This document shows positions 19,410 to 63,128 of a DNA stretch of 64,000 nt, in pieces. Under the pieces are notes generated by a model, which saw nothing but the letters and a program-made list of their open reading frames with translations, was not told where the DNA came from and ran no database searches. The stretch comes from Mayamaea pseudoterrestris (taxonomy: Eukaryota): positions 992,001 through 1,056,000 of the forward strand of contig BROI01000006.1 of the NCBI GenBank assembly GCA_027923505.1, in the 5' to 3' direction. The translations under genes and the position numbers were made by a program. Numbering within the stretch: the stretch's first letter is position 1; every line of letters begins with the position of its first letter.

Positions 19410-19797
19410 TGACGTAATTGACACTGGCACTCGTTTCGTACTATTGCCTTAATGACGTAATTGACACTGGCACTTGTTTCATACTATTGCCTTATGACGT
19501 AATTGACACTGGCACTCGTTTCGCAACATTGTCTTGATGACGTAATTGACACTGGCACTCGTTTCGCATTATTGCCTTGATGACGTAATTGACACTGGCA
19601 CTCGTTTCATACTATTGCCTCATGACGCAGTTTTCACTGGCACTCGTTTCGCACTAAAGCCTTATGATGTAGTTTTCACTGGCACTTGTTTCGTACTATT
19701 GCCTTGTGACGTAATTGACACTGGCACTCGTTTCATACTATAGCCTTATGACGTAATTGACACTGGCACTCGTTTCGCACTATAGCCTTGTGACGTA
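19410..19797 (+). repeat. 42-bp minisatellite array 1 (9 units, A5-B2-A2) between the divergent helicase and aconitase genes
   Basis: Unit TGACG(TAATTGA|CAGTTTT)CACTGGCACTCGTTTCRYACTATTGCCTTR, with starts at 19410, 19453, 19495, 19538, 19581, 19623, 19665, 19707, 19749 and a terminal TGACGT at 19791. Confidence 0.97.
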
Positions 19798-20016
19798 TTT
19801 ACCATCTCAGTCGCGAGTGTCACGTGACGCGCCTCGAGGTTCGAGCGGCAGCTGCCGGATCCATTCGCTGTCGCTCGCTTGCTGCTGCTCTCGAAAAGGA
19901 TTCTTCCGTGCGAAGCACTTGGACGACTGGTCGCGAAGACATATATCTTCTCGCACTTTTCACTCTCTATATCAATCACTACTATAGCAGAAAAAGCGAG
20001 TCAATTAGCTACGACC

Positions 20017-22914
20017 ATGATGATGCTTGCTCACCGCCGCGTTGCGGCTCGAAGCTTGTCGACCTTGATGGGTCGGGTGAGTGCCGGCCGCAATTTGAAT
20101 CCAGCGACGTCTTGCCTAGGAACCATGCCTACGATGGATGTTACGATGTTGCAAGCCATAAGATCAGTTGTATCGTCATCTACGTTCAATCGCTCGTTTC
20201 ATTCGTCGTCTCCAGTGACATTATCAGCATCATCTCCATTTTTGAGCGACTACCAAAAGCACGTTGACGAGCGCGCGCAGATGGCAGCCGGCTTTGGAAT
20301 TGCGCCGCTGCCACTCAATGCCTCGCAAGTTTCGACATTGCTCAACGAACTGGAAAAGGAACCAGTCGATTCTGAAACCGCCAAGCAGCTTTTGGAATTA
20401 TTCACCGAGCGCGTTCCTCCTGGAGTCGATGAAGCCGCTTATGTCAAGGCGACGTGGCTGTCAAGCATTGCCAAGGGTTCGACGACTAGTCCTCACATGG
20501 ATCGTGCGCAAGCAATCAAGCTACTTGGAACCATGCAGGGCGGCTATAATGTTGCAGCGCTGGTGGAGTTGCTGGAAGATTCGGACGAAAGTCTTGCCGT
20601 ATTGGCGGGCGAGCAGCTGTCGCACACGCTCTTGGTCTTTGACGCCTACTATGACGTTGAAGCGCTTCATAAAAAGGGCGTCAAAGCTGCAACAACCGTT
20701 TTGGAAAGCTGGGCGAATGCCGATTGGTTTTTGAAAAAGCCAAAGGTTCCAACCAAAATGAGCGCCACCGTCTTTCGCGTCACTGGCGAAACAAACACCG
20801 ACGACCTTAGTCCAGCGCAGGATGCTTGGAGTCGACCCGATATTCCGCTACACGCCGTCAGCATGCTCAAGAATGCCCGCGATGGCATAGTGCCAGTCAA
20901 GGATGGAGAGATTGGGCCGCTCAAACAAATCAAAGAGTTGCAAGCCAAGGGATTACCATTAGCCTATGTTGGTGACGTGGTTGGGACGGGTAGTTCGCGC
21001 AAGTCGGCTACCAACTCGGTGCTTTGGTACATGGGTGATGCCATTCCGTATACACCAAACATTAAAGCAGGTGGTTTGTGCATTGGTCAAAAGATTGCGC
21101 CCATTTTCTTCAACACCATGGAAGACTCTGGTTCATTGCCGATTGAAATGTCCGTGGACGCTTTGAACATGGGTGATGCCATTGATGTTTATCCATATGA
21201 TGGCAAGGTTTGCAAGCATGAGACTGATGAAGTCATTTCCGAATTTACGCTCAAGACGCCTGTCATTTTGGATGAAGTCCGCGCTGGTGGACGCATTCCG
21301 CTCATTATTGGACGTGGATTGACGGCCAAGGCGCGCGAAACGCTTGGCCGAGCATCAGACTTGACGGATGTTTTTGTCATGCCGCAGCTTCCTGAAGGAG
21401 CAAACGAGCCAAAGGGATTTACGCTTGCGCAAAAGATGGTTGCCAAGGCGTGTGGATTACCAGAGACGCAAGGCGTCGTCCCCAATCAGTACTGCGAACC
21501 CATGATGACTACGGTTGGCAGTCAAGACACGACGGGTCCAATGACACGCGACGAACTACGCTCCTTGGCTTGCTTGGGATTTTCGGCCGATTTGGTCATG
21601 CAGTCGTTTTGCCATACCGCCGCCTACCCAAAACCAGTGGACGTTGTTACGCACCACACGTTGCCCGACTTTATTCGCACGCGTGGTGGAGTTTCGCTGC
21701 GACCAGGTGATGGAATCATTCACTCATGGATCAATCGCATGTTACTGCCCGATACGGTTGGAACGGGCGGTGACTCGCATACACGCTTTCCCATTGGAAT
21801 TTCCTTTCCGGCGGGTAGTGGATTGGTAGCGTTTGCGGCTGCAACGGGTATCATGCCGCTCGACATGCCGGAATCCGTCTTGGTGCGATTCAGTGGTGAC
21901 ATGCAACCTGGTATCACGCTGCGCGATCTTGTCCAGGCGATTCCATACACAGCCATTCAAATGGGACTGTTGACGGTGGAGAAGAAGGGCAAGAAGAATG
22001 TGTTTTCGGGACGCATTTTGGAGATTGAAGGCTTGCCAGACTTGAAGTGTGAGCAAGCGTTTGAGTTGTCGGACGCTTCGGCAGAGCGATCAGCGGCTGG
22101 ATGCACGATCAAGCTCAACAAGGAACCAATTATCGAATACATGAACTCGAACATTGTCATGCTCAAGTGGATGATTTCTGAAGGCTACGGCGATCGGCGC
22201 ACATTGGAGCGTCGTATCGCTCGCATGGAGGAGTGGGTTGCGAATCCAATCTTGATGGAAGCTGACAAGCAGGCGGACTATGCGTGTGTCATTGATATCA
22301 ATTTGAATGACTTGAAAGAGCCGGTGCTTGCTTTGCCAAACGATCCGGATGCCTGCGCCCTTCTGTCAGAGGTTGCTGGGTCCAAGATTGACGAAGTCTT
22401 TATTGGAAGCTGCATGACGAACATTGGTCACTTTCGCGCGGCAGGCAAGCTATTGAATCAGCTCCAAAAACCGCTTCCAACTCGTCTCTGGGTCGCCCCT
22501 CCCACCAAGATGGACGAAGCGCAGTTGATTGAGGAAGGATACTATGGCATATTTGGAGCGAGTGGAGCCCGCACGGAAATGCCGGGCTGCTCCTTGTGCA
22601 TGGGTAACCAGGCCCGCGTCGCTCCTGGATCAACGGTTGTTTCAACCAGTACGCGCAATTTCCCGAATCGCCTTGGACAAGGCGCGAACGTTTACCTCGC
22701 CAGTGCGGAATTGGCGGCCATTGCGAGCATCGAGGGTGAGCTTCCATCGGTTGATACCTACATGAAGTACATGAGCCAGGTCAATGCGACAGCTGCTGAT
22801 ACATACCGCTATTTGAATTTCGACGAGCTTCCGGACTATGTCAACTCGGCTGGATCAGTGGAGATTAGTGAGGAGATGAGAGCGGCGGCGCACAAGCTTT
22901 CAGCTGGACAGTAA
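20017..22914 (+). CDS. acnB: Aconitate hydratase 2 (AcnB type) with a probable mitochondrial presequence
   Basis: AcnB motifs ERVPPGVDEAAYVKA, LLGTMQGGYN, TNTDDLSPA, GTGSSRKSA, VFIGSCMTNIGH, PGCSLCMGNQAR and STSTRNFPNRLG. The N-terminus from ATG 20017 is R/S-rich. Confidence 0.95.
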   Translation: MMMLAHRRVAARSLSTLMGRVSAGRNLNPATSCLGTMPTMDVTMLQAIRSVVSSSTFNRSFHSSSPVTLSASSPFLSDYQKHVDERAQMAAGFGIAPLPLNASQVSTLLNELEKEPVDSETAKQLLELFTERVPPGVDEAAYVKATWLSSIAKGSTTSPHMDRAQAIKLLGTMQGGYNVAALVELLEDSDESLAVLAGEQLSHTLLVFDAYYDVEALHKKGVKAATTVLESWANADWFLKKPKVPTKMSATVFRVTGETNTDDLSPAQDAWSRPDIPLHAVSMLKNARDGIVPVKDGEIGPLKQIKELQAKGLPLAYVGDVVGTGSSRKSATNSVLWYMGDAIPYTPNIKAGGLCIGQKIAPIFFNTMEDSGSLPIEMSVDALNMGDAIDVYPYDGKVCKHETDEVISEFTLKTPVILDEVRAGGRIPLIIGRGLTAKARETLGRASDLTDVFVMPQLPEGANEPKGFTLAQKMVAKACGLPETQGVVPNQYCEPMMTTVGSQDTTGPMTRDELRSLACLGFSADLVMQSFCHTAAYPKPVDVVTHHTLPDFIRTRGGVSLRPGDGIIHSWINRMLLPDTVGTGGDSHTRFPIGISFPAGSGLVAFAAATGIMPLDMPESVLVRFSGDMQPGITLRDLVQAIPYTAIQMGLLTVEKKGKKNVFSGRILEIEGLPDLKCEQAFELSDASAERSAAGCTIKLNKEPIIEYMNSNIVMLKWMISEGYGDRRTLERRIARMEEWVANPILMEADKQADYACVIDINLNDLKEPVLALPNDPDACALLSEVAGSKIDEVFIGSCMTNIGHFRAAGKLLNQLQKPLPTRLWVAPPTKMDEAQLIEEGYYGIFGASGARTEMPGCSLCMGNQARVAPGSTVVSTSTRNFPNRLGQGANVYLASAELAAIASIEGELPSVDTYMKYMSQVNATAADTYRYLNFDELPDYVNSAGSVEISEEMRAAAHKLSAGQ

Positions 22915-23035
22915 GGATGTGAATCGAGCGTTGAATGTTTAATGTTAACTTCAGACTAAATATTTTGATGACAAATGTGACTCCATGTTAACTTGTGTAT
23001 TCGTTATGAGGTTATTCTACGTCTTCGTTTTATGA

Positions 23036-25123
23036 TCAATCTTCTTCCAGTGTTTGACTGCCATTACCAAAACCGACAGGCATGGCCACCTTGCTGCTAC
23101 TCGCCAGCGTTGGGAGGTCGACCAGATCTGGATCGCGAAACATACGCCTTGATATGTCGCCATTAGCAAGATTGCTCGTGCTAGAACTTCTCGACAGCGC
23201 ATTTACTGAAACATCAGTCTCAGACAAGCTATCAGCATGTAGTCGCACAGGACATTCCACCATTTCCATGTCCAGCCCATCGTCACCGGCGCCTAGTCCC
23301 CATTCATCATTTGCCGAATCGCTAGCGTCGTCATTCTTCTTCTTCCTTTTGCTCACGCGAGGAAGCGACGATTGAAGTCCGCCCATGGACAATGGAATAA
23401 CATTCTTCATCAAGTTTGCCGCCTGCGACTGCTGGCCGCCTCGTATGCTATCATCATTATCGTCCAGCAACATTCCATCACGCGTCGTGGCATTTGCATG
23501 GTGCATTGGATCGAACAAAAATCGTTGAAACTTGTAGAGCGGTCGAATCACTTGATAGTTGCGTCCCATGACTTGCTGAAGCAGCAGCAAAAAGCCAACC
23601 ATGCTAAACATTAAAACCATGAGCGCCAATATGTAATCACTGTAATCAGCGTCGGCAATCAACGAAGGGTGCGTCGCCGATGGCATGGCCGTGTTGACTG
23701 AAACAATCTGCAAATAGGGAGTCGTCAAGTTCACTCGATAGTAGTACGAGCCATCAAAGAATACATAAGCTTGCGCGGTGGTATTTGTCACTGCCAAGCC
23801 ATATCTTGGATTCTGAAAACATTGCGCAATCGTTTGCACCATGAGTGAACCATCTCCATTCAGCAGCGCTGTTTGATACATGCCAGCGGCTTGGGTGTGC
23901 GTTGCATTGGCAGCCTTTTTGGCCGCCTCGGCAGCAGCGGCGGCCGCCTGCGCCGCCTGCTCGTTTCCGGAGTGTTGCGCGTCCTCGGCAGCAGATTGTG
24001 CATCCTGTGCAGCTTCGGAAGCGTCTTGAGCAGCTTGACTGGCGTCATCCTTGTTGAGTGGAGCTACCGTCTTGAGCATTGTTGGTGCGAGAGAAACTGA
24101 TGGTTGTAGCGTTGGTGATTGTGAAATAGTTGCATTGGTCGAGTCGTTGATTGTTGCCAATGGCGTTGGTGCAACCGAGGTCGAGTCCAGCAGAGTTCTC
24201 AGCAGTAAGTCTTCCAGCGTCCGATGGTACCGTCCATTGTCGTTTCTCGACCGCTCCTTGCGCTTGCGATTACCAATGGTACGATTAGTCTTTCGCTGTT
24301 GTTCGTAAATGCTGTAGTTGGCCGTGGCCATTGAGGTTAAACAGTTGTATAGCTTGCTGTAAAACAGCGTCGGATCCAAACTATCAAAGTTATCATTGTT
24401 TCCAGCATGAACACGTTGAACGTCACTGGCAATCAAACGCAGCTGCCATCGGTTTGGAAGAATCAGAGGGGACAAGTCCACTCCAACATCCGCAAGATGC
24501 TGCAGGAGTGCAAGTAAAAAGTCGAGGTCACTGCTTGACTTTAGTAGCAGTTCATTCGTAGATTTCTTGTAGACACTAAAGGGCTGATACCGCCGTCGCG
24601 ACTTTGTCGGATAAGCTACAGCTGTCTGCAGTAGATTCTTTAGAACGGCGCCAGTCATGGTGGCAACGTAGGTGGCGGAATGATAGTCATTTGGACTTAT
24701 TCTTGTGGTGAAGTAAATGCGCGCCTCATTGTCCCAAGCAACAAATTTCTGCTGTTGACTGTCTTCATCGTCATGCGTGACGAGTCGAGGAATGGCTTCG
24801 TGGGTCAAGTCCAGTCCTTGTCGAAGCGGACCATACTCAAGCGTAAACTCGCGGCGGCGTTGTTCGAGAGACGAAAGTAAACTTGCACTTGGCGGTCGGT
24901 AACGTAAACCCAGCGCCAGCTTTCGCACTGGAATTGTAGAATTGGCCAATCCATGCAAAAGTGCAGTTCGTTGAAGGACGTAGCATTCCAAAACGCTCGA
25001 AGCATCCAAGCCTTGGGTCAGTGATGGGATGAGCGAGGCTGTCAAAATTCGAGGAACGGTTGCAGGGTCGTTGCTGCTGCTACCAATGCTAGTTGCGGAG
25101 TTATCGCCTGCTGCAACGCTCAT
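23036..25123 (-). CDS. Uncharacterised 695-aa protein with one predicted TM helix and an A/Q/D-rich linker
   Basis: Long ORF with hydrophobic segment YILALMVLMFSMVGFLLLL. No family recognised. Confidence 0.75.
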   Translation of the reverse strand: MSVAAGDNSATSIGSSSNDPATVPRILTASLIPSLTQGLDASSVLECYVLQRTALLHGLANSTIPVRKLALGLRYRPPSASLLSSLEQRRREFTLEYGPLRQGLDLTHEAIPRLVTHDDEDSQQQKFVAWDNEARIYFTTRISPNDYHSATYVATMTGAVLKNLLQTAVAYPTKSRRRYQPFSVYKKSTNELLLKSSSDLDFLLALLQHLADVGVDLSPLILPNRWQLRLIASDVQRVHAGNNDNFDSLDPTLFYSKLYNCLTSMATANYSIYEQQRKTNRTIGNRKRKERSRNDNGRYHRTLEDLLLRTLLDSTSVAPTPLATINDSTNATISQSPTLQPSVSLAPTMLKTVAPLNKDDASQAAQDASEAAQDAQSAAEDAQHSGNEQAAQAAAAAAEAAKKAANATHTQAAGMYQTALLNGDGSLMVQTIAQCFQNPRYGLAVTNTTAQAYVFFDGSYYYRVNLTTPYLQIVSVNTAMPSATHPSLIADADYSDYILALMVLMFSMVGFLLLLQQVMGRNYQVIRPLYKFQRFLFDPMHHANATTRDGMLLDDNDDSIRGGQQSQAANLMKNVIPLSMGGLQSSLPRVSKRKKKNDDASDSANDEWGLGAGDDGLDMEMVECPVRLHADSLSETDVSVNALSRSSSTSNLANGDISRRMFRDPDLVDLPTLASSSKVAMPVGFGNGSQTLEED

Positions 25124-25610
25124 TTCCTCTTTTAAAAGGAATTCTTTCTATCTCTATGCTCTCTGCCATGTACAGTAACCGCCTGATAGGTATAACAGGT
25201 GGATGAAAATGGCTACCGGTGGCTCATGGTCGCCATTCTCTCGGCCGTTTTCGGCTGTCGCATCGGTTTGCGATCCAAGACTCGACCAAGGGCAAAGCCG
25301 ACAGCAACAAGTTGGGTAGCTATCACGACTCGCCTGCGATACAGGTAGCTATTCACAGTCGAGCGACTGTACCGGTAGCTTGATAGAAGCAGGTGGATAC
25401 ATCATAGGATTAGTGTATAAGTTCCTGTATGCTTGCGTCTCGGACCGACTTTTCTACGTACCTCCAGCTCGCGCTTGATGCGGCATATCGGTTTAGGCAC
25501 TGTGAAGGAAAACAACTGGCCGTACAATCCATGTGTTGGTTTAGCTAAACGAATCAAGGGAAACAATATGTTTCATATCAATATAAAGTTAATTGTCCCT
25601 CTCCCGTCAT

Positions 25611-28600
25611 TTACGATGCATCCTCCGTCCCCAAGGATACTCGTCGGTTTTCACGCTTCAAATAGGCCAGCTCCAATAAATGGCCCTTTGGTGGAGTAGC
25701 TGCGGCGTCGTGGGATCCGGCTTTAAGCAGCTCCATCTCATGGCCGGGTATCATTGCCCTAGAGTCGTCGGTACACTCCTCGACAGCCGGCTCGGGCAAA
25801 ATGGCCGCACTTGTCGAAGAATGTTTGTTCGCTCGGCGCTCTCTTGCCATCTCACCAATACTTTTGCGCTCAATTCTTACAGGAGTTGTCGGTAACGAAA
25901 TCGGCTGCTGCAAACATTCATTCTCCACGTGACTGGCATTGATGTTTCCTACCTCCTCGACTGCAGCGTCGACCGTCGGGAGTTTCTCTGCCGAACTCGG
26001 TGCTGGCACCACCAAATTGGCAATTTCAAGGTCATGAACAGATCCAGAAAGACGACGCGCCGACACAAGCGGCAGCAATGCGCTCTTATGTGGTCGATTA
26101 GCGGCTTTCTCCATAGACATTCGGGCCCTTCTGGCTTCGCTGAGTAGCATAGGGCTACCCACCGGCTTGACTCCAGCGTCTGGAGCGGATGGTATTGTCG
26201 TAAGTGATGGTTCATCCGTTGTGAAACAGTCGGGAGGCTCGACAAGATCCTCCTGTTCTTTTACTAAATTGTTGCAAGCAGTCTCTATCACATGTATCGG
26301 AGATGATTGACCTTCTGGCGAAAGTAAAGCCTCCTTTTTGAATGTGCATTCAACTCCGGACATCGTTTCTGCATTTGCCGCATTGATAGGGACTGATTCG
26401 GTTGGCATGCTCTGACATTCAGCTTCATGAGCTTTTGCTATATTGTGTGTCTCCGAAGAGGAATTGAAATGTGGTAGCTTGTCGGTGTGCTTGACAACTG
26501 TCGCTTTCATTGGAGAGCGAGATGCAATCGGCTTTGTTGGTGACCGAAGAATTAGATTTTCAAAAAGTGCTCGAGCTTGTTGGACACCGGAGCTCGGAAC
26601 ATTTTCTGGGTCATAGCTTTGTGGAGGCTCTGGCGTTTCCAACACTACTTGCGTCCTGCTATCCTCATTACAAGCGTTCTTGTCCATGGTAGCCAACGTA
26701 CTGACTTTGTTGTCGCTCGCCAAAGTACCAACACTCCCAACACTGTTGCTCGCTGACGACGAGACAAGTTTCTCGCGCTCGTAGATGGCTTTCATGTGAC
26801 TGCTCGGGTCCGGAATCATTCGACCCTTCTTGAAATCTTCAATAGTTCGTTCACTTGCATTTTTTAGCATATTATTGACAAGGACTATTAGAGAAGCGCC
26901 TCCTTCCTTTGGGTTCTTTGCGCTTAATGAGCCGCGGGACTTTGAACTTGACAGACTCGATGTTTCATTTGCTCTTCGTCGTTCATTTCGACTCTTCATA
27001 GCTTCTCGTTCATCGTACTTCGCCAATGCCCGACTCAAGATAGTGGTGAACGACGCGAGAATACCCAAAAGCGTAGTCGTCGGACCAGTCTGGAAACCTT
27101 CTCCACAATATCGGGAGAGTGCTTTACAATTATCAAGTGCTTGTTTTTTTACAGCGTCGAGCTCACGAAAAGCAACGTTACCAGCTTTCAAAAACTGTTC
27201 CAATCGAGCAATGCCACCTTCGATTGAATTTAGCCCGGAGTCATTCGTATGGTCAATACTTGAATTTTCTTCACTAGAATGCTTTGATTCCTTTGACTTT
27301 ATACTCTCAAGAAATTGTTCGCGTTGAGCAAACCCATCGGATTTTTGCTTCGTGTCAATTTCAGGTGCTGCTTCCTCAGACTTGCCTCTGGCAATCGCCG
27401 CAACCATAGCCGCGATGCTTCCCATGTCATTACGCAGCTGATTTGGTCCGCCTTTATGGCTTGTTCCTTTTAAAGCATCTAGTTCGACTTGACACAGCTG
27501 TAATGAATCCTTCAAATTTTGCGTCTCTGCAATCAGATCTCCAATTGCCATGCGGCTAGCAGTGTGACACTCAGGGAAATCGCTTGTCAGATCCAATGTT
27601 TGTCGTTGTCCATTTTCGACAAAAACTTCCACCAAAAAATCAAGCACTGTTATTTTATTATCCTTGCTCTTTGTCTCGGTGAGTTTTAAAAGACTGTCCA
27701 TTTTGAAACCAGCCGCTCGCCCCGCTTTCGTGCCCTCGTTCATGAAATTTCCGATGCGAAGGACCATACCCAGTACTTCTTGGAGTTTCTCGCTGCCCAT
27801 TACTTGCTTGCAAACAGTGGACAAGAGATTAAAGTTTCCAGTACGTGTTTTTGACTCTTGCTCAAACGACTCCATAGTCTGTAGCACCTTGACCTTTTGT
27901 TCAATCCGCTCAATGCTTTGAATATGACGGAACCATCGTTCAGCAGGTGTGAGATTGCTATCTGGTCCATCATAAGCTCGCACAAGTGCAATCTCCGCGA
28001 TTGTCGGCAAGAGTCCTCTCAGAAACTGAACTTTATCGCCTCGAATGCGTCTCAATGGGTCGAGATTAGCCAGTATATCAGCGAGTTCCCTGGATGGGAT
28101 ATCTTTGAAAGCCTTGAGGCTTATAGCAATGTTGTTCGAACGGGTCAGATCCAGCAAATTTGCTTTCCCTTTTTCCTCTGTACCTTGTGATGGCTTGTTA
28201 GAAACGACCGCAGTCTTCTTTTGAAATAAATCAATTAATTTGCTAATGTCGTGCCTTTCAGGTAACGATTCTTCTTCGTCCGCGGTTATGTTAGCAGCTT
28301 TCCACACGCTTTGATCGAGCTCTTTTCCGGACAGAACATTCCAATGCAAAGAGACAAGCTTACTAGATTGGCTTGTTGCGTCCTTCGAAGAAACTTTAGA
28401 ATTGATTGATGATTGGCTGTTATAAAAGGCGCGCCCCACGACTGCGACCATAACCTCCTCGCTGGCTCTTTCGTGCCTCATTTTTTTGTACACCTCATCC
28501 TTTGGAATTTGAATTTTCAATAACCTTCGATAATTTGAAGCCAAAGACTCGTCCTCATCTGAAAGGACTGACTTCAACAAGGACTTCGCGCCGTTTGCAC

Positions 28601-31600: not shown

Positions 31601-31994
31601 TTGGAATTTCCGTCGTTCGAACGCCAGAGCTACTATCCCTGGAAACTGGATTGCGCGTTCGAATCGGAGTGGCAAGGCGAGGGTGCTGCTGTTCGTCAGA
31701 TGAATTGGACAATCGAGTCGACTCTGGATCCAATTCTAGCCGCCGCTGCCGCGGCCCAATGAGTACGACGGATGGATCTCGAGGAACGTTTGGATGCTGC
31801 GTTGATTGCTGCTGCTTTTGCTGTCGCTGCGCCTTTATTGCTAGCTGACTGCTCGACAATGAAATGGTAGGCGATCCGCTGCTGCTAGTATCTGAAGTGG
31901 GCGGATCCATTACAGTCCTTGCATGAAAAGCTGATGGAGGCTCACAAAGCCGTCGCGCCACAGGCTCCCGGGGAGCTCGGCGAGGAAAGTTCAT
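25611..31994 (-). CDS. Formin (FH2-domain actin nucleator), ~2100 aa; exons 31994-31020 and 30932-25611
   Basis: FH2 hallmarks KLVSLHW...SVW, LLDLTRSNNIAISLK, LRIGNFMN and GFKMDSLLKLTETKSKDNKITVLDFL. In-frame intron CAG|GTACGT...GACTAG|CTA at 31019-30933. Confidence 0.92.
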
Positions 31995-32228
31995 TGCTGC
32001 AACGAGATCGTGTCACGCTGGATGAGGGACGATGCTGATTGTTCGCGTGGAGTTGAGGACTCATTCATGGTCTGCCTGCTTGCTTGCATGTCGTTAGCGA
32101 GGGTATCTTTTGGAAAGACGTCCTTGCACGCCTGCAGGTGTTTCAGCTTGAACCGGGTGAATTGATGCATCGCACCGGTACCCACCTTCTTGGATCCCAA
32201 CATCGCGCCAGCCGAGCCAGAAACGCCG

Positions 32229-36410: not shown

Positions 36411-36566
36411 GCGCCATTGTACGGCAATGTATTTCGTTATGCTTGACGACGTATCGACTTTAAAGCTAAGTAAACCGATATTTCCATCGTGAACATGATC
36501 TGCTAAGTAGTAGTTCAAAGTGATAGTTTACCAGTTGTAACTCACTGTAAAGCGACCACTCAATTT

Positions 36567-37261
36567 TCATTTGCCTTGGCCTTGTAGCGTAATGACAATG
36601 TTTCGCTTGTGTCCGCCACCGTAACCTCCTTGATCGCGATGCTCACACAAGTAGATGCCCTGCCAAGTACCAAGAGCAAGCCTTCCCTTGGTGATTGGAA
36701 CGTTAACTGACGCTCCCATCAAACTCGACTTGACGTGGCCAGGCATGTCGTCGTCACCTTCCAGTGTGTGTTTAAAGGTTCCATCGCGGTTCCACTGAGC
36801 GGGTACAATTCTGTTGAGAGCCGTCTCCATATCTAGACGTACGTCGGGATCAGCATTCTCGTTAATGGTCAGTGAAGCGGATGCTGTGACAATGAGTGAG
36901 CAAACGTTTTAGTAGGACAATCTCCTGCCAACGTCACGAAACAACAACTGCACAATTTTCCCTTCACAAATGACCTACTATGCTGAATGAACAGGTTCAT
37001 GAGACCCATTTCCATTCCAGCCAGATCGTTTTGAATTGCTCGCTGAATCTGCGAGGTGACCAAGTGGCAGCCTCGGCTGGGAGCAGTAATGGAAATGGTG
37101 TGTTGAAAGAACAGGGGCTTCATGTTTGTCGTGCTGCTGCTATCGTTTGAAATCGTTAAAGCCAAACAAGTAGAAGATGAAGAGGCGAGTACTGGCAGAA
37201 CAAAGGATGCTGATAATGAAAGAAAGGAGGACAAGACCAAGATGGACGAAAGGATTCTCAT
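36567..37261 (-). CDS. yjbQ: YjbQ/UPF0047 family protein (secondary thiamine-phosphate synthase-like), probably plastid-targeted; exons 37261-36979 and 36883-36567
   Basis: The spliced product gives FIQHTSASLTINENADPDVRLDME, HTLEGDDDMPGHVKSSL and LALGTWQGIYLCEHR. The signal peptide ends in SASF. Confidence 0.9.
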
Positions 37262-37332
37262 GGTGGAAAACAATCGAAAATGCATTCGTTGTCGATGCCG
37301 AGTCAATACCGATGACTTGCACTTTCGTCTTG

Positions 37333-37713
37333 TGACGTAATTGACACTGGCACTCGTTTCATACTATTGCCTGCTGACGTAATTGACACTGGCACTCGTT
37401 TCGTAATATAGCCTTATGACGTAATTGACACTGGCACTCGTTTCGCACTATTGCCTTGTGACGTAGTTTTCACTGGCACTCGTTTCGCACTATTGCCTTA
37501 TGACGCAGTTTTCACTGGCACTCGTTTCGCACCATTGACGTATGACGCAGTTTTCACTGGCACTCGTTTCATACTATTGCCTTGTGACGCAGTTTTCACT
37601 GGCACTCGTTTCTCACTATTGCCTTATGACGCAGTTTTCACTGGCACTCGTTTCATACTATTGCCTTTTGACGTAATTGACACTCGCACTCGTTTAACAC
37701 TATTGCCTTCTGA
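37333..37713 (+). repeat. 42-bp minisatellite array 2 (9 units, A3-B5-A1) between the divergent yjbQ and small membrane protein genes
   Basis: Same unit as array 1, with starts every 42 bp from 37333 to 37669. Confidence 0.97.
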
Positions 37714-37893
37714 AGTACACGCACGTCTACTCCGTCTCTACGTAGGATCAGTACTGAATTCTCGTAGGCTCAAGTCGCTGGACAACCTCAAGCGTTGCGG
37801 CCATGACGAAAGAAGACCATTGGACGACTGTCGATTGATCGACTGCTTTCGTCCTGTGAACCATTGACACTAGAACGTCAATTACTACAAATA

Positions 37894-38640
37894 ATGTCTT
37901 CCGCCAATTACTTCAAGACTCTATTGTACCGCCAATTGGCTGGCTTCCGACGCACGCTTTCGAGCGAGGCCGTATGGATCGTTCCCGCTGGTCTTGGCGC
38001 TGGATGGCTCCTTTGGCCGGCCATGGACCATGAATGGAAGATGGAACTGGGACTGGCACGCGATCCTGACGCCGAAATGTTCAAGGTGCAAGAAATGAAG
38101 AAGCAGCGTTACGAAGCCAAGTTTGGCAAGAGTATGGACGCCAAGGATGAAGACGAAGAGGAGGAAGATGAGCCTGAAGATGACGAGGAGGAAAAGGAGG
38201 ACGGACCTGAAGAGGAAGCACCAGAGGAAGAGTCCGAGGAGGAAGGAATTGGCGGAGGTGATGATGATGCCAATGACACGGGCGACGATGACGACGATGC
38301 TGCTGGCGACGACGAGGAAGAGGAGGAAGAAGAAGAAGAATCACCAATTCAAGTGCCGCCCCTCTACGTTCCCACCAAGGGCAAGCTTACGCCAGAACAA
38401 GTGTGGGACAATTACACAATCAGGGTATGTATCGAGTGTAGGTGAGAGGTGCTGTTTGTGCGTCGATTCGCTGTCTAATTGGTTCTTGTTTTCTTAGGCG
38501 GTCAACTGGTTGGCAGACGACGATGATGACGAGGATGAAGGTACGTATTGTCGCATCGAAGGTTTTAAGTTTGTTAGCATATCAAATGACTCACTCTTTA
38601 ACGTTGCTGCATTTGTATCGATGCAGAGGATGACGAGTAA
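37894..38640 (+). CDS. Small single-TM protein with a long D/E-rich tail, possibly a small mitochondrial respiratory-complex subunit; exons 37894-38424, 38498-38540 and 38627-38640
   Basis: N-terminal AVWIVPAGLGAGWLLWPAM helix. Two GT-AG introns give an in-frame product ending EDDE*. The family assignment is tentative. Confidence 0.7.
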
Positions 38641-41234: not shown

Positions 41235-41284
41235 TTCTATATGAAGGAGTCTGTAGGTGTGAAGAGGCGGATCAGATATGATGA

Positions 41285-43538
<2,254 letters not shown>

Positions 43539-43584
43539 AAAGTTTTCAGGTTGGTCAATGCAAAAGTTAGTGTCGGTTTGTGTT

Positions 43585-49100: not shown

Positions 49101-49397
49101 GGCAGTTATGATTGATCCAAGCCATGGGCTCAATTTATTTTGTGGTTAAGGTCAATCCAAGCCATGAGTCCATCCTCTGTTGTATTAAGGGACAATCCAA
49201 TCCAAGGATCATTGCTAAAGTGTGGTAGAGATTGATCCATCCAAGCAGTTTCTGTTAACTTGTGGTTATGGTCAATGCACCCCGCATCCCATGGGTCCAT
49301 GTTGATGATTTGCATCCCATGTGTCTACATTTTTTGGCAGTTATGATTGATCCAAGCCATGGGTTCATCTTAATTTGTGGTTAAGGTCAATCCAAGC
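46150..49397. repeat. Satellite C (~234-235-bp unit, ~12 copies) nested inside satellite B, with a mixed B/C zone at 46150-46600
   Basis: AAGCCATGGGTTCA recurs at 46751, 46985, 47219, 47463, 47698 and 47932. Some units carry (CCAAT)n expansions. Confidence 0.95.
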
Positions 49398-49399
49398 CA

Positions 49400-52300: not shown

Positions 52301-55300
52301 CCAGAATAATGATGTTGGCACCATTCTGGTTTAAATTGGGCACCTACAAGGCTTGCGGTTGGGGCAATGGAATGTCACGGCATCTGCGGGCTGAGACTGG
52401 TGACAAGTTGACACCAAATACATTGCCATCCCCTGAGACACCAGCCAAGCCTACCATCTTGTAGCGCAGCCAGAATAATGATGTTGGCACCATTCTGGTG
52501 TAATTTGGGCACCTACAAGGCTTGTGGTAGGGGCGTTTGAATCTTACAACATCTGCAGGCTGACTGGTGACAAGTTGTCACCAAATACATTGCCATCAAC
52601 TGAGACACAAGCCAATCTTACCATCTTGTTGTGGAGACGGAATAATGATGTTGGCACCATTCTGGTGTAATTTGGGCACCTACAAGGCTTGCGGTAGGGG
52701 CGTTTGAATGCCATGGCATCTGCGGGCTGAGACTGGTGACAAGTTGTCACCAAATACATTGCCATCCCCTGAGACACCATCCAGGCATATCATCTTGTTG
52801 CATACACTGAATAATGATGTTGGCACCATTCTGGTGTAATTTGGGCACCTACAGGGCCTGCTGTAGGGACGTTTGAATGTTATGGCATCTGCAGGCTGAG
52901 ACTGGTGACAAGTTGTCACCAATTACATTGCCATCCCCTGAGACACCAGCCAGGCATACCATTTGTAGCGCAGCCTATATAATGATGTTGGCACCATTCT
53001 TTTGTAATTTGGGCATTTACAGGGCCTGCTGCAGGGGTGTTTGAATGTCACAGCATCTGCAGGCTGAGATTGGTGACAAGTTGTCACCAAATACATTGCC
53101 AACCCCTGAGACGCCAGCCAGGCATATCATCTTGTAGCGGAGACTGGACAAATGATGTTGGCACCATTCTGGTGTAATTTGGGCACCTACAGGGCCTGCT
53201 GTAGGGGCGTTTGAATGTCACGGCATCTGCGGGCTGAGATTGGTGACAAGTTGTCACCAAATACATTGCCATCCCCTGAGACGCCTGCCAGGCATATAAT
53301 CTTGTAGCGGGGACTGCAAAATGATGTTAGCACCATTCTGGTGTAATTTGGGCACCTACAGGGCCAGCTGTAGGGGCGTTTGAATGTCACAACATCTGCA
53401 CACTGAGACTGGTGACAAAATGTCACCAAATACATAGCCATTATCTGAGACACCAGCCAATCTTACCGTCTTGTAGAGCAGCCTGAATAATGATGTTGGC
53501 ACCATTCTGGTGTAATTTGGGCACCTACAGGGCCTGCTGTAGGGGTGTTTGAATGTCACAGCATCTGCGGGCTGAGATTGGTGACAAGTTGTCACCAAAT
53601 AGATTGCCATCCCCTGAGACGCCAGCCAGGCATATAATCTTGTAGCGGGGTCTGCAAAATGATGTTGGCACCATTCTGGTGTAATTTGGGCTCCTACAGG
53701 GCCTGCTGTAGGGGCGTTTGAATGTCACAGCATCTGCGGGCTAAAACTGGTGACAAGTTGTCACCAAATACATTGCCATCACCTAAGACACCAGCCAACC
53801 TTACTGTCTTGAACCGGTAGCGCAGCCTGAATATTGATGTTGGCACCATTCTGGTGTAATTTGGGCTCCTACAGGGCCTGCTGTAGGGGTGTTTGAATGT
53901 CACAGCATCTGCGGGCTGAGATTGGTGACAAGTTGTCACCAAATACATTGCCATCTCCTGAGATGCCAGCCAGGCATATCATTTTGTAGCGCAGCCGAAA
54001 AAATGATGTTGGCACCATTCTGGTGGAATTTGGGCACCTGCAGGGCCTGCTGTAGGGGCGTTTGAATGTCACAGCATCTGCGGGCTAAAACTGGTGACAA
54101 GTTGTCACCAAATACATTGCCATCACCTAAGACACCAGCCAACCTTACCGTCTTGTAGCGCAGACTGAAAAATGATGTTGGCACTATGCTTGTGTAATTT
54201 TGGCACCTACAGGGCCTGCTGTAGGGGCGTTTGAATGTCACGGCATCTGCAGGCTGAGATTGGTAACAAGTTGTCACCAAATAAATTGCCAGCCCCTGAG
54301 ACGCCAGCCAGGCATATCATCTTATTGCGCAGCCTATATAATGATGTTGGAACCATTTCTGGTGTAATTTGGGCACCTACAGGGCCTTCTGTAGGAATGT
54401 TTGAATGTCACAGCATCTGCGGGCTGAGATTGGTGACAAGTTGTCACCAAATACAGCCATCCCCTGAGACGCCAGCCAGGCATCTCATCTTGTTGCGGAG
54501 ACTGAATAATGATGTTGGCACCATTCTGGTGTGATTTGGGTGTATACAGGGCCTGCTGTAGGGGCGTTTGAATGTCACAGCATCTGCGGGCTAAAACTGG
54601 TGACAAGTTGTCACCAAATACATTGCCATCACCTAAGACACCAGCCAACCTTACTGTCTTGAACCGGTAGCGCAGCCTGAATATTGATGTTGGCACCATT
54701 CTGGTGTAATTTGGGCACCTACAGGGCCTGCTGTTGGGGTGTTTGAATGTCACAGCATCTGCGGGCTGAGATTGGTGACAAGTTGTCACCAAATACATTG
54801 CCAAACCATGAGATGCCAGTTAGGCATATCATTTTGTAGCGCAGCCGGAAAAATGATGTTGGCACCATTCTGGTGGAATTTGGGCACCTGCAGGGCCTGC
54901 TGTAGGGGCGTTTGAATGTCACAGCATCTGCGGGCTAAAACTGGTGACAAGTTGTCACCAAATACATTGCCATCACCTAAGACACCAGCCAACCTTACCG
55001 TCTTGTAGCGCAGACTGAAAAATGATGTTGGCACTATTCTTGTGTAATTTGGGCACCTTCAGGGCCTGCTGTAGGGGCGTTTGAATGTCACGGCATCTGC
55101 AGGCTGAGATTGGTGACAAGTTGTCACCAAATACAGCCATCCCCTGAGACGCCAGCCAGGCATATCATCCTGTTGCAGAGCCTGAATAATGATGTTGGCA
55201 CCATTCTGGTGTAATTTGGGCACCTACAGGGCCTGCTGTAGGGGCGTTTGAATGTCACAGCATCTGCGGGCTAAAACTGGTGACAAGTTGTCACCAAATA

Positions 55301-56540
55301 CATTGCCATCACCTAAGACACCAGCCAACCTTACTGCCTTGTACCGGTAGCGCAAACTGAAAAATGATGTTGGCACCATTCTGGTGTAATTTGGGCACCT
55401 ACAGGGCTTGCGGTAGGGGCAATGGAATGTCACGGCATCTGCGGGCTGAGACTGGTGACAAGTTGACACCAAATACATCCCCTGAGACAGCAGCCAAGCC
55501 TACCAAATTGTAGCGCAACCAGAATAATGATGTTGGCACCATTCTGGTGTAATTTGGGCACCTACAGGGCTTGCGGTAGGGGTGTTTGAATGTCACAGCA
55601 TCTGCGGGCTGAGACTGGTGACAAGTTGTCAATAAATACATTGCCATCCCCTGAGATGCCAGCCAGGCATATCATCTTGTTGCGGAGACTGAATAATGAT
55701 GTTGGCACCATTCTGGTGTGATTTGGGCACCTACAGGGCCTGCAGTAGGGGCGTTTGAATGTCACAGCATTTGCGGGCTGAGACTGGTGACAAGTTGTCA
55801 CCAAATACATTGCCATCCCCTGAGACACTAGCCAAGCCTACAATCTTGTAGCGCAGCCGGAATAATGATGTTGGCACCATTCTGGTGTAATTTGGGCACC
55901 TGCAGGGCATGTTATAGGGGCATTTGAATGACAAGGCATCTGCGGGCCAAGACTGGTGACAAGTTGTCACCAATCACATTGCCATCCCCTGAGACACCAG
56001 CCAGGCATGCCATCGTGTAGCGCGGACAGAAAAACGATGTTGGCAGCATTCCGGTTTGATTTGGGTGTATACAGGGCATGTTATAGAGGCAATGGAATGA
56101 CACGGCATCTGCGGGCTGAGACTGGTGACAAGCTGTCACCAAATACATTGCCATCCCCTGAGACAACGGCCAAGCCTACCATCTTGTAGCGCAGCCTGAA
56201 TAATGATGTTGGCAAAATTCTGGTGTGATTTGGGTATATACAGGGCATGTTATAAGGGCAATGGAATGTCACAGCATCTGCAGGCTGAGACTGGTGACAA
56301 GTTGTCACCAAATACATTGCCATCCCCTGAGACACCATCCAAGCCTACCATTTTGTAGCGCAGCCTAAATAATAATGTTGGCACCATTCTGGTTTGATAA
56401 GGGCATATACAGGGCATGTTATAGGGGCAATTGAATATCCTGGTATCTGCTGGCTGAGACTGGTGACAAATTGTCACCAATCATATTGCAGTCTACTGAG
56501 ACATCAACCAGGCATACCATTTTGTAGTGCAGACTGAACA
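49400..56540. repeat. Satellite B, right arm (169-bp unit, ~42 copies)
   Basis: Homologous ORFs offset by 169 (49807/49976/50145). Same orientation as the left arm. Confidence 0.95.
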
Positions 56541-56559
56541 TGACATTTGCTTGATTGTT

Positions 56560-61191: not shown

Positions 61192-62565
61192 TCAAGTTTG
61201 CCCGCCCAATGACTTCTTGAACACCAAACTCGCCCTTGACGCCACCTCTCCCTTGGCGTCAGCCTTTTTTACAGTATGTTGGTAAGTCTGCTGACAATTT
61301 CCAAACATGTGCGTGACATCGCCGTCCATGACCCAAAACGAGTGCACTCGGCCACGCGAGTCTGCGTTCTCCCGAAAGGCAAACCTCCTCGTTGCCCCAA
61401 TGCTCACCACGGCCGTATCAAACTCCCAGAGTGTGCCTTGGTCAGGATCGGAATGGTAACGCATGGCACTTGTGCCATCGTAGTAGTGATTGATCAAGCA
61501 GCAATCGTAGTCAATGCCGAGTGGAATTTTCAACGCATCTCGCGTCGTTTGCACCAATGGTGACCAATCTTGCCGGCGCATGCTCTTGCCCGAGTACAGA
61601 AACGGGCCAACCGACGTTTCGCCCTGCCACGCCGTCCGCCGTCGTTCCAAAACGGGCAAGCCCTGGTTAGTCTTAATGGTTGCTTCATCGCCGCTTGCAA
61701 AGCTGACCTGCGACAAGAGGCTGTCGACGTTAAGATGAAGTGCACTGGGTCCCTCGTTTAATGCAACGTTTGCGCAAAGGTTTGGATGAATGCGAAACGG
61801 CAAGCCCAGCTCATGATAGGCTCGTTCAATGTGGCTTGGTACGAGAGGAAGCGAGTAATTGCCCCGTGAGGCACTCATCGAGCGTAAGCCCTCCAGCGCC
61901 CAAAACAGTCCCGACAATTGGTGCGGTTCAAATGCTTTGAGCTGGTCGACTGTAACGTCACTCCAAAAGTTCATTAGTGGATATGTAATGGCTCGTAACC
62001 AATTGCTTGACATATCAGTTGGTTGGTTCTTGACTAGAATGCGAATTACGACAGAAGCCGCTTTTGTTGCGTCAACTAGCGATCCGATGGATTGGTGATT
62101 ATACGGCATCCGGCTCAGCAAGCGATGCAGAATGAATTGAGCGTCGTCGTCACCGTCGCAGTCGAGCAAAAGTGGAAGACTCGCTGCTGCTGCGGCTGCA
62201 TCGATATCTCTCTCGCTACAATTTTCTGCTTCATTTGCATATCTTTGCTGGTTGTCGAGTGCGACAAGCTGCTTGCAGAGCCGAGTCCAAATGAGGGCGT
62301 TAATGTGAAGATAGTCGCCGCTGGCTTCACCATGACATGCTTGAAACCCCAACGGCCGAGCGACTCGCTGCAAGAGTCCTTCCGGCGTGACGCACTGCTG
62401 GAGCGTGGCAATGAGACTGCTACTTGTACTGCTGCTGGAGCTTGTCGTTGTTGATAAAAGGTGCGTCGCTTGTCGGCGCGTGGTGCCGATCGGGCGAACA
62501 ACAAGTGCACCAACACCGACATGCAGCAGCAATGAAAGCGTCACAGCGACGCTCGTCCTTCGCAT
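61192..62565 (-). CDS. AlkB-family 2OG-Fe(II) dioxygenase (ALKBH2/3-like C-terminal domain) with an N-terminal targeting peptide
   Basis: RRRTAWQG, FLYSG, CLINHY.DG, YHSD (HxD), VSIGATRRFAFR, QQTYQHTV and RASLVFK. Confidence 0.85.
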   Translation of the reverse strand: MRRTSVAVTLSLLLHVGVGALVVRPIGTTRRQATHLLSTTTSSSSSTSSSLIATLQQCVTPEGLLQRVARPLGFQACHGEASGDYLHINALIWTRLCKQLVALDNQQRYANEAENCSERDIDAAAAAASLPLLLDCDGDDDAQFILHRLLSRMPYNHQSIGSLVDATKAASVVIRILVKNQPTDMSSNWLRAITYPLMNFWSDVTVDQLKAFEPHQLSGLFWALEGLRSMSASRGNYSLPLVPSHIERAYHELGLPFRIHPNLCANVALNEGPSALHLNVDSLLSQVSFASGDEATIKTNQGLPVLERRRTAWQGETSVGPFLYSGKSMRRQDWSPLVQTTRDALKIPLGIDYDCCLINHYYDGTSAMRYHSDPDQGTLWEFDTAVVSIGATRRFAFRENADSRGRVHSFWVMDGDVTHMFGNCQQTYQHTVKKADAKGEVASRASLVFKKSLGGQT

Positions 62566-62733
62566 GATTGCAGCAGCCGTCTTTCTTTTGGACTATTAAA
62601 ACAACAACTGCAGATGACAATGGTTCCTTTGCTAATCATAAAGTGTGATGAAGCGCATGAATGGCTCCGCCTTGGTCGAAAGGCGTTCAAACAGTAAATG
62701 GCGACATGCGGCACAGTATCAACCTAATAAAAA

Positions 62734-63128
62734 ACGTCATGAGGCAATAGTACGAAACGAATGCCAGTGTCAATAACGTCACAAGGCAATAGTACGAAAC
62801 AAGTGCCAGTGTCAATTACGTCACAAGGCAATAGTATTAAACGAGTGCCAGTGAAAACTGCGTCATAAGGCAATAGTACGAAACGAGTGCCAGTGAAAAC
62901 TACGTCAGAAAGCAATAGTAAGAAAACGAGTGCCAGTGAAAACTACGTCACTAGGCAATATTGCGAAACGAGTGCCAGTGAAAACTGCGTCTCGTAGGCA
63001 ATAGTGTGAAACGAGTGCCAGTGAAAACTGCGTCGCAAGGCAATAGTACGAAACGAGTGCCAGTGTCAATTTCGTCACAGGGCAATAGTACGAAACGAGT
63101 GCCAGTGTCAATTTCGTCCCAAGGCAAT
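62734..63128 (-). repeat. 42-bp minisatellite array 3 (9 units, A2-B5-A2, inverted) between the divergent AlkB-like and RluA genes
   Basis: Reverse complement of the same unit, with unit ends at 62781, 62823, 62865, 62907, 62950, 62992, 63035, 63077 and 63119. Confidence 0.97.

Follow-up and report, generated by a model that had tools for sequence, protein, structure and literature searches.

Three arrays of a 42-bp unit in a 64,000-nucleotide stretch of DNA (the window) from the freshwater diatom Mayamaea pseudoterrestris, to which a 100% protein match also assigns it, are best read, at roughly even odds, as a dispersed, high-copy block repeat that spread whole, in the manner of a mobile element, into promoter gaps, where it then became a putative transcription-factor platform. 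The evidence for this reading comes from the common anatomy of the three arrays, from the occurrence of the unit at many other loci in contigs of public sequencing runs, and from the bZIP-type motif that heads each unit.

Results

Three arrays follow one block plan

Tandem Repeats Finder located three arrays of a 42-bp unit, two of them at the coordinates given in Table 1 (9.2 and 9.3 copies) and a third, on the opposite strand, at 62734-63128 (9.4 copies). The units are arranged head-to-tail with 87-88% matches among them, array GC is 43%, and the distances between arrays are 18 and 25 kb. An in-register cut yields nine full units of 42 or 43 bp in each of the three, or 27 units in total, and confirms the nine full units per array described in an earlier note on this DNA, a fixed length that is based on three arrays only. 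The 16-base core of the unit, allowing two or fewer mismatches, occurs 27 times in the window against 0.03 occurrences expected, and 27 was reached in none of 100 shuffles. A profile search with all filters off recovered just these 27 units and found no solo or decayed unit in the window outside the three arrays, the next match having E = 0.48.

Table 1. Coordinates of the three arrays and of the genes flanking them in the window.
Feature	Position	Strand	Details
Array 1	19410..19797	+	units of 43, 42, 43, 43, 42, 42, 42, 42, 42 bp; order A A A A A B B' A A
Array 2	37329..37717	+	nine 42-bp units at 37333-37710; order A A A B' B B B B A
Array 3	62733..63133	-	nine units, 63119 down to 62740; order A A B B B' B' B A A
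SF1-type helicase gene (AAA_11/AAA_12 domains)	15676..18876	-	ATG 18876, ~534 bp from array 1 left edge
Bacterial-type aconitase B gene	20017..22914	+	first ATG ~220 bp from array 1 right edge
UPF0047/YjbQ gene, two exons (Pfam match covers exon 36567-36830 only)	36567..37285	-	candidate ATGs 37285 or 37123, 48-210 bp from array 2 left edge
183-aa acidic protein, no Pfam family	37894..38445	+	ATG ~181 bp from array 2 right edge
2OG-Fe(II) oxygenase (AlkB-like) gene	61192..62565	-	ATG ~169 bp from TGACGT-box end of array 3
RluA-type pseudouridine synthase gene	63131..64000	+	runs off window; in-frame ATGs 63131 and 63192, 3-64 bp from array 3

All three arrays share a plan in which a short unit tail is followed by nine units and then by a TGACGTA-type closing box, making a block of ~385 bp. 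Array 1 is closed by a tenth box, TGACGTA, at 19791-19797. In array 2 a CTTG tail fragment precedes the units and the closing tenth box has decayed to TGAAGTA, and array 3, read on the minus strand, begins with a 14-base tail fragment (63120-63133) and closes with a tenth box, TGACGTT, at 62739-62733. The phase of the edges is identical throughout (3 of 3 arrays): on the left each array opens at a unit start that follows the tail fragment, and on the right it stops after a TGACGTA-like head. Each block contains ten TGACGT/C boxes set 42 bp apart, which corresponds to four helical turns.

The unit head reads TGACGT in A and B' units and TGACGC in B units. TGACG is intact in 23 of the 27 units (position 1 is altered in three and position 4 in one), and the letter at position 6 is T in 17 units, C in 8 and A in 2. 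Non-major letters occupy 15 of 783 cells at the near-invariant unit positions 1-29 and 28-59 of 378 at the variable positions 30-43, a contrast whose p-values are inflated because the units are related copies.

The A/B orders that the earlier note had given, 5-2-2, 3-5-1 and 2-5-2, came out the same in the in-register cut (AAAAA-BB-AA, AAA-BBBBB-A and AA-BBBBB-AA). A layout AA..BB.A is common to the arrays: in all three, A occupies unit positions 1, 2 and 9 and B occupies positions 6 and 7, and the orders diverge solely at unit positions 3, 4, 5 and 8. The mean distance between units is 0.150 within arrays versus 0.153 between arrays (p = 0.23); units of one array are no closer to one another than to units of the others, so that neither growth nor homogenisation took place locally. 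The earlier proposal that units turn over while total length stays fixed finds no support in this result. Descent from one ancestral nine-unit block would explain the equal length and the AA..BB.A layout without selection on length. The accompanying claim that the arrays are not neutral minisatellites holds in the sense that they are not independent ones, because length, both end phases, the layout with A units outside and B units inside, and location in a divergent gap are common to the three.

The arrays lie in divergent promoter gaps

Each of the three arrays is situated between head-to-head genes, as had been observed before (helicase/aconitase B, YjbQ/acidic protein and oxygenase/RluA-type synthase), whereas the distance of 65-320 bp to the start codons reported with that observation must be widened, the array edge lying ~3 to 534 bp from the nearest in-frame ATG (534/220, 48-210/181 and 169/3-64 bp). 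The first in-frame ATG of the RluA-type pseudouridine synthase gene (63131) falls within the tail fragment of array 3. About six divergent gaps are present in the window, of which three hold an array and three do not, and by our own count over about 16 gaps in all, the chance that 3 of 3 arrays fall in divergent gaps is ~0.05. The six flanking genes have no pathway in common. In a protein-cluster search aconitase B matched bacterial clusters only.

To the right of both array 1 and array 2, at a distance of 107-136 bp, is a 15-base match (E = 0.05). Array 3 is without it, and the match was rejected as a joint motif and taken as chance.

The unit head, by sequence match, is the diatom aureo-box/CCRE bZIP motif, and it is located here in promoter DNA. 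The aureo box recognized by aureochrome is TGACGT, with a spacing of 100-150 bp in the available part of the aureochrome paper (PMC4937327), and the target of PtbZIP11 in CO2/cAMP-responsive promoters is TGACGT/C according to the available part of a second source (10.1101/2023.09.20.558591). To the extent of these partial sources, the arrays resemble aureo-box and CCRE promoters in placing a TGACGT/TGACGC motif upstream of genes, several per promoter. Unlike those promoters, which in the same sources have two or three motifs, the arrays have ten candidate boxes locked at 42 bp, and the repeat also carries an invariant 16-bp core. The conserved 29-bp block, the TGACGT/C boxes and the 42-bp period make a protein-binding role plausible, and the 29-bp block could equally reflect a host function under selection.

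The unit recurs at many other loci

The contigs that aligned to an identical 19.9-kb stretch numbered 2744 and 2111 in two public sequencing runs (X1 and X2) versus 67 and 64 in two others (X3 and X4), and 1742 of the X1 contigs fit two places in this stretch. Summed depth in the two array bins reached 31904 and 38600 in X1, versus roughly 70-230 in other bins, and 5520 and 7402 in X2, versus 22-53 in other bins; summed contig depth is not copy number, and the number of loci is therefore only roughly bounded. Loose ends of contigs fill 24 listed rows and 267 further ones, and several contigs per listed row enter differing sequence, for example five contigs after TGACGTA at 19713 and six before the unit start at 37542/37543. 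In X1 and X2, which have thousands of array-like contigs, the unit is found at many further loci with matching end phases and many different flanks, and contigs of both runs also join the left flanks to arrays 1 and 2. The contigs revealed neither an empty site nor a presence/absence allele, and no listed joint skips a whole array. The family is thus far more abundant than the earlier note could tell from the window, and this abundance agrees with a dispersed, mobile-like repeat no less well than with a dedicated chromosomal element.

In X3 and X4, whose kind of run is unrecorded, summed depth in the array bins is 1.05-2.89, and because contigs can show neither transcript starts nor levels, no conclusion on transcription is drawn from these runs. 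A few contigs of these two runs end in array sequence and then enter other DNA, one of them an ATG-containing stretch.

The compact genome of M. pseudoterrestris measures 30.6 Mb, with 11,019 genes, and was assembled from long reads with a read N50 of 8.6 kb, short reads also having been produced (PMC9724779). If short reads polished the assembly, which is our assumption, the letters of the repeat may be blurred between copies. The repeat table of that paper lists 0 DNA transposons, 0 satellites and 6633 unclassified elements, the last totalling 2,255,301 bp or 7.4% of the assembly (PMC9724779), from which we calculate a mean of about 340 bp per unclassified element. The word 'tandem' is absent from its main text (PMC9724779), and a search of the literature on this species and on diatom tandem or promoter repeats found no description of the 42-bp repeat.

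A metagenome scan with the 16-base core returned at least 117 stretches, with one match in each of the 80 listed; because none of the 117 holds the longer unit or a second core, these matches are attributed to chance. Viral contigs gave 17 single core matches, 0 of 17 with the longer unit, and contigs of prokaryote genomes gave 0 matches to a pattern of 23 specified bases. A protein search for ORFs encoded by arrays elsewhere, using the through-ORF of array 2 as query, yielded 3039 word-sharing candidates, none of them at E <= 0.001.

The block lacks the ends of familiar elements

The six 400-bp flanks are unrelated, their best common stretch being 14 bases, and the array ends carry neither terminal inverted repeats (TIRs) nor target-site duplications (TSDs), in agreement with the earlier note, which had seen no shared flanks, TIRs or TSDs. 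The left end is TGACGTAATTGA and the right end, when reverse-complemented, is TACGTCACAAGG; the two have only the palindromic ACGT in common, and BLAST of the flanks found no inverted match adjoining the arrays. No direct repeat is present at the edges of any of the three arrays, the TGACGTA at both ends being part of the repeat period, and the window contains no transposase or reverse transcriptase. The block is nonetheless akin to a MITE (miniature inverted-repeat transposable element) in measuring ~385 bp, being non-coding, and having many dispersed copies with unrelated flanks.

ARAGORN detected 0 genes in the window. Against Rfam, the window had 0 matches at gathering score, and array 2 had 0 even when E was allowed to reach 1. 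As a single strand the array folds more weakly than shuffles (z = +2.0), 99 of 100 of which equal or surpass it, so that no cruciform or hairpin feature is indicated. An RNA gene was rejected, neither gene nor structure being found by Rfam, ARAGORN or single-strand folding. A SINE or other retroposon was likewise set aside, given the absence of a pol III-type head of tRNA, 5S or 7SL origin (Rfam, ARAGORN) and of any A-rich or simple-repeat tail, or duplication, common to the three copies. Helitrons begin with 5'-TC and end with 3'-CTRR, carry a subterminal hairpin and insert between A and T; the diatom array begins TGACG and ends TGACGTA, and with a strand that folds worse than shuffles it was rejected as a Helitron-type element.

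Discussion

We propose that the three arrays are copies of one dispersed ~385-bp block repeat of M. pseudoterrestris, which would have spread whole by a copy-and-insert process resembling that of a mobile element. The block would land, or survive, in open gaps upstream of genes, and its A/B borders may later have been shifted by small conversion tracts. Each inserted block would set ten phased bZIP-type boxes and the invariant 16-bp core 3-530 bp from start codons, and would then most likely act as a promoter-proximal transcription-factor platform for one or both neighbours. A stronger form of the idea, which we regard as unlikely, is that several hundred or more of these fixed-length blocks may fill a large part of the divergent promoters of this diatom as a dedicated, selected device. 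Such a device could be a standard cassette combining bidirectional promoter and insulator, or else a platform of origin-like kind that is connected to aureochrome or cAMP-bZIP signalling, and selection, beyond descent alone, would keep it at nine units.

Among the alternatives, it is possible, though we consider it doubtful, that the arrays constitute a host cis-regulatory module, that is, a dedicated bidirectional promoter or enhancer platform whose length and symmetry are under selection and which is recruited to defined divergent pairs. Location in divergent gaps near start codons in 3 of 3 cases, equal length in all three arrays, bZIP-type boxes at a 42-bp period and the pairing, in each unit, of a conserved block of 29 bp with a linker of 13-14 bp that varies are all consistent with such a module, but the six flanking genes lack a common pathway, three further divergent gaps in the window are without an array, the abundance of the unit in X1 and X2 contigs exceeds what one regulon would lead one to expect, and common descent of the block accounts for both the equal length and the layout. 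An element of chromosomal maintenance, whether it served as a replication origin, as a chromatin boundary separating divergent genes or for the loading of SMC complexes, is improbable. Spacings of 18 and 25 kb and the abundance in a 30.6-Mb genome are compatible with origin-like spacing, and some ten sites in roughly 385 bp recall multi-site insulators and viral plasmid-maintenance repeats; against this, diatom episome-maintenance sequences are low in GC, the arrays have a GC of 43%, and the array strand, folding worse than shuffles (z = +2.0), offers no cruciform or hairpin.

Ordinary minisatellites that expanded separately at each of the three promoters, starting from one shared short seed, are disfavoured and very improbable. 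A head-to-tail unit of 42 bp with 87-88% matches lies within the 10-100 bp of minisatellites and VNTRs, yet the unit number does not vary (nine in 3 of 3), both end phases and the A/B layout are identical in the three arrays, homogenisation within arrays is absent (0.150 versus 0.153, p = 0.23), and the window holds no solo seed unit. That the arrays arose as an assembly or polishing artefact, the genome being rich in repeats, is scarcely credible: multi-mapping short reads can, as a general caveat, mis-polish letters in high-copy repeats, but contigs of X1 and X2 run from the unique left flanks into arrays 1 and 2 at matching places and carry the unit at very high summed depth, and the long reads (read N50 8.6 kb, PMC9724779) greatly exceed the ~385 bp of an array.

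The dispersed block repeat that we favour shares traits with several known systems. The gypsy Su(Hw) insulator places about 12 sites in about 350 bp, the family of repeats of EBV oriP is a multi-site protein platform, and the as-1 element of CaMV 35S pairs two TGACG motifs, a TGACGTAA-type site and a TGACGCA-type site. Like these, the diatom arrays bring many copies of one candidate site into a few hundred bp, and the as-1 pairing resembles their A and B units; unlike the diatom arrays, all three are single-locus or element-borne and have a known binding protein, and none is a genome-wide diatom promoter repeat. Vinces et al. 2009 reportedly described variable tandem repeats in yeast promoters that are locus-specific and vary in copy number. 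The diatom arrays are similarly tandem repeats in promoters that could tune expression, but here one block recurs at many loci, with an equal unit number in the three copies seen.

Transposons that bear tandem repeats include Tetris of Drosophila and the foldback elements. As in those transposons, we observe a dispersed tandem array, in what may be a mobile unit, whose copies have a common internal structure; their arrays, however, sit inside recognisable transposon ends, whereas the diatom array reaches both block edges. The same likeness and difference apply to Porphyromonas gingivalis, in which a minisatellite lies inside a MITE, as described in the available part of the source (PMC4596501). 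Short non-autonomous elements also amplify transcription-factor motifs near genes, as reported in the available parts of papers on plant MITEs (PMC5950925) and on degenerate MITEs of Epichloe (PMC3227409). The diatom block is like the MITEs of these partial sources in being short, non-coding, high-copy and near genes, with unrelated flanks and motifs carried into promoters, and unlike them in showing neither terminal inverted repeats nor target-site duplications and in being a tandem array throughout.

The absence of the usual transposon ends makes this element unusual, and its spread could reveal an unfamiliar route of dispersal. The block family could help explain the 7.4% of the assembly labelled 'unclassified repeats', and the block would offer a ready-made modular promoter part for diatom engineering. 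If the abundance is true, one repeat has put ten phased bZIP boxes beside a sizeable fraction of the genes of this organism (11,019 genes in 30.6 Mb), which would amount to a natural rewiring of promoters by a repeat in a group whose cis-regulation is poorly known.

Three nine-unit arrays between head-to-head genes

Three blocks of a 42-bp repeat in the window are confirmed as a real, structured and promoter-associated element. The near-invariant 16-base core of the repeat unit occurs 27 times at no more than two mismatches, nine times in each array, against an expectation of 0.03 and with none of 100 shuffles reaching 27. Cutting in register into units of 42 or 43 bp reproduces the nine full units per array described in an earlier note on this DNA, together with its layout of outer (A) and inner (B) unit subtypes: AAAAA-BB-AA, AAA-BBBBB-A and AA-BBBBB-AA in arrays 1, 2 and 3, respectively. 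A profile of the 27 units, run over the whole window with all filters off, recovers just those units (next match, E = 0.48), and the window is thus without solo or decayed units.

Array 1 also shows a longer rhythm. Tandem Repeats Finder scores a three-unit period of 128 bp (615) above the 42-bp period (553), and unit columns 30-32 run strictly GTA/ATA/GCA, GCA/ATA/GCA, GTA/ATA/GCA. This rhythm is absent from arrays 2 and 3; the program does report a 126-bp period in array 2. A block of three units, present three times, may make up the nine.

Coordinates of the arrays, their neighbouring genes and other features of the window (repeat statistics of the arrays from Tandem Repeats Finder)
Feature	Position	Strand	Details
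Satellite	6145-8084		large, non-coding
Satellite	11786-14983		large, non-coding
SF1-type helicase	ATG 18876	minus	left of array 1
Array 1	19410-19797		42-bp period, 9.2 copies, 87-88% matches
15-base match	~19919-19933		right of array 1
Aconitase B	20017-22914, ATG 20017	plus	right of array 1
Protein of 1393 aa	32229-36410		no Pfam family
UPF0047/YjbQ, two exons	first exon 36869-37285, ATG 37285 or 37123	minus	left of array 2
Array 2	37329-37717		42-bp period, 9.3 copies, 87-88% matches
15-base match	~37820-37833		right of array 2
Acidic protein of 183 aa	ATG 37894	plus	right of array 2
ThiC	41285-43538		overlapping frames 41285-42697 and 42561-43538
Satellite	44429-46102		large, non-coding
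Satellite	46578-49399		large, non-coding
Satellite	49447-56538		large, non-coding
2OG-Fe(II) oxygenase	ATG 62565	minus	left of array 3
Array 3	62734-63128	minus	42-bp period, 9.4 copies, 87-88% matches
RluA-type pseudouridine synthase	ATG 63131 or 63192	plus	right of array 3

All three arrays lie in gaps between divergent genes, as the note had stated. The distances from the left and right array edges to the nearest start codons are about 534 and 220 bp for array 1, 48-210 and 181 bp for array 2, and 169 and 3-64 bp for array 3; without the arrays, the gaps would measure about 750, 230 and 230 bp. Counted from ORF lists, some 6 of about 16 intergenic gaps in the window are divergent, so that chance alone would place three of three arrays in such gaps with a probability of about 0.05, and a preference for divergent gaps is suggestive and no more.

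Two of the neighbouring genes have features of their own. If translation of UPF0047/YjbQ starts at 37285, which lies about 48 bp away from array 2, the protein would begin with a hydrophobic stretch resembling a signal peptide (MRILSSILVLSSFLSLSA...). Aconitase B is of the bacterial type and carries all three AcnB Pfam domains on a diatom nuclear contig; an N-terminal extension puts the beginning of the first domain, counted on the longer ORF, at residue 124.

Anatomy of the repeat unit

In an alignment of the 27 units, positions 1-5 (TGACG), 9-10 (TT) and 13-29 (the core) are near-invariant. Positions 8, 11 and 12 always change together: 15 units read A..GA there and the other 12 read G..TT. 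At position 6, T is found in 17 units, C in 8 and A in 2, and the four B units with a T at this place are designated B prime. The remaining variation falls in the unit tail, chiefly at columns 30 (G/A, at a CpG), 31 (T/C) and 43 (A/G). Letters outside the major one or two states occupy 15 of 783 cells at positions 1-29 and 28 to 59 of 378 at positions 30-43 (Fisher p = 9e-6 to 8e-18; the relatedness of the units inflates these values). The unit therefore consists of a conserved block of 29 bp and, after it, a loose linker of 13-14 bp. Since 42 bp corresponds to four turns of B-DNA, successive TGACGT/C heads, hereafter boxes, would be aligned along one face of the helix. The arrays have a GC content of 43% and give no sign of hairpin or cruciform character in single-strand folding, which is worse than that of shuffled sequences (z = +2.0, equalled or bettered by 99 of 100 shuffles).

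Ancestry and spread of the arrays

The three arrays resemble one another to their ends. Read in the direction of its units, each has a short piece of unit tail ahead of its first unit start (4-14 bases in arrays 2 and 3, scarcely recognisable in array 1), and each closes with an extra head, TGACGTA, TGAAGTA and TGACGTT in arrays 1, 2 and 3, giving ten boxes per block. Every array has A at units 1, 2 and 9 and B at units 6 and 7, with differences confined to units 3, 4, 5 and 8. Had separate minisatellites grown or been homogenised locally, the units of one array should be closest to each other; instead, mean unit distance is 0.150 within and 0.153 between arrays (permutation p = 0.23), and the end phases and A/B layout common to all three likewise do not fit local growth. 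Units at the same position across arrays are closer solely through the A/B pattern (p = 0.06, rising to 0.74 once the four diagnostic columns are removed). The data fit descent of the arrays from a single nine-unit ancestor, which would have been copied widely before short conversion tracts, few in number, altered the copies. The note had proposed a turnover of units under a fixed total length; given this fit, active maintenance of length is not needed.

The array block behaves like a dispersed mobile block, and we give roughly one chance in two to its having been inserted by a copy-and-insert route resembling that of a mobile element, the most likely mechanism. The note's statement that shared flanks, inverted ends and target duplications are missing holds for the three arrays: nothing longer than 14 bases is shared across their six 400-bp flanks, no terminal inverted repeat links the two ends of any array, and no target duplication is visible at their edges. 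Nor do the copies have a common tail, the arrays or window match a tRNA-like or other known RNA family, or the window encode a transposase or reverse transcriptase. Membership among MITEs, SINEs and Helitrons fails on these features. Separately, arrays 1 and 2 have in common, 107-136 bp beyond their right edges, a 15-base match that includes TTGGACGACTG (93% identity, E = 0.05); array 3 has no such match alongside, and the resemblance is probably due to chance.

Occurrence beyond the window

We compared the stretch 18500-38400, which includes arrays 1 and 2, with contigs of four public sequencing runs, X1-X4. Matching contigs number 2744, 2111, 67 and 64, respectively, and 1742 of those from X1 match two places of the stretch. 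Summed contig depth, which is not equivalent to copy number, reaches 31904 and 38600 in the two array bins of X1 against roughly 70-230 elsewhere, and 5520 and 7402 against 22-53 in X2. At least 24 loose ends are listed (with 267 further), several of which hold three to six low-agreement contigs running into different DNA. The number of distinct array-like contigs and these loose ends indicate that many other loci carry the array. X1 and X2 contigs that run from unique left-flank sequence into array 1 or array 2 (records 1, 8, 9 and 16) argue against an assembly artefact.

Among the matches listed, left loose ends fall at unit starts (37459, 37542/37543 and 37626) and right loose ends directly after TGACGTA (19713, with five contigs, and 37423), reproducing the end phases of the window arrays. 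Others fall elsewhere in the unit (19642 and 37600), so truncated or variant copies also exist. No empty allele is seen in this stretch, as none of the joints listed for X1-X4 skips a whole array.

Mayamaea pseudoterrestris is a freshwater raphid diatom, diploid with 2.97% heterozygosity, and its 30.6-Mb assembly comprises 41 contigs and 11,019 genes (PMC9724779). A rough guess puts the genome total at hundreds of arrays; scaling three per 64 kb to the genome yields about 1400, which is only an extrapolation. Repeats make up 19% of the genome in table S3 of the same paper, with 10.79% Ty1/Copia, 0.4% simple repeats, 6633 'unclassified' elements (2,255,301 bp, 7.36%) and 0 DNA transposons, and the word 'tandem' is absent from its main text. 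That table also lists 0 satellites. In the window, large satellites occupy about one quarter of the sequence; their periods are 356 bp (3.3, 1.9 and 9.1 copies), 169 bp (7.2, 2.6 and 41.9 copies) and 235 bp (11.9 copies), and none of them is matched by the profile of the 42-bp unit.

In metagenome and viral collections, none of 134 core loci among the matches listed exceeds a chance core, and the specific unit pattern has no match in a prokaryote collection. The literature searched yielded no published description of the 42-bp repeat.

Two coding regions of the window also merit mention. ThiC is divided between two frames that jointly cover the Pfam model, which implies an intron or frame change; the public M. 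pseudoterrestris protein to which the ThiC reading frame is 100% identical has 628 aa. Inspection by eye of the 1393-aa protein shows a module, a few hundred residues long, that occurs three times; LRKFLCKFGIP and IRGAWTLDS are examples of the motifs that recur.

A putative transcription-factor platform

The A heads (TGACGT) match the 'aureo box', the recognition site of aureochrome bZIPs in diatoms (PMC4937327), and A and B heads (TGACGC) both satisfy the TGACGT/C definition of the PtbZIP11 target in CO2/cAMP-responsive promoters (10.1101/2023.09.20.558591). An invariant 16-bp core, a distance of 3-534 bp from start codons and ten boxes that would share one face of the helix favour a putative transcription-factor platform as the most economical functional reading. 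Enhancer-like looping between spaced aureo boxes is a speculation of the aureochrome paper (PMC4937327).

The earlier note thus correctly recognised a real, structured, promoter-associated element, but its interpretation as a length-selected chromosomal device has less support from the evidence than a dispersed block repeat of high copy number with bZIP-type boxes. The closest comparators found in the literature searched are MITEs by which binding motifs are amplified and a MITE with an internal minisatellite. The array family is a binding-site-bearing dispersed repeat, a kind already known, and is unusual for such a repeat in lacking transposon ends, in the constant phase of its ends and in its ten phased boxes.
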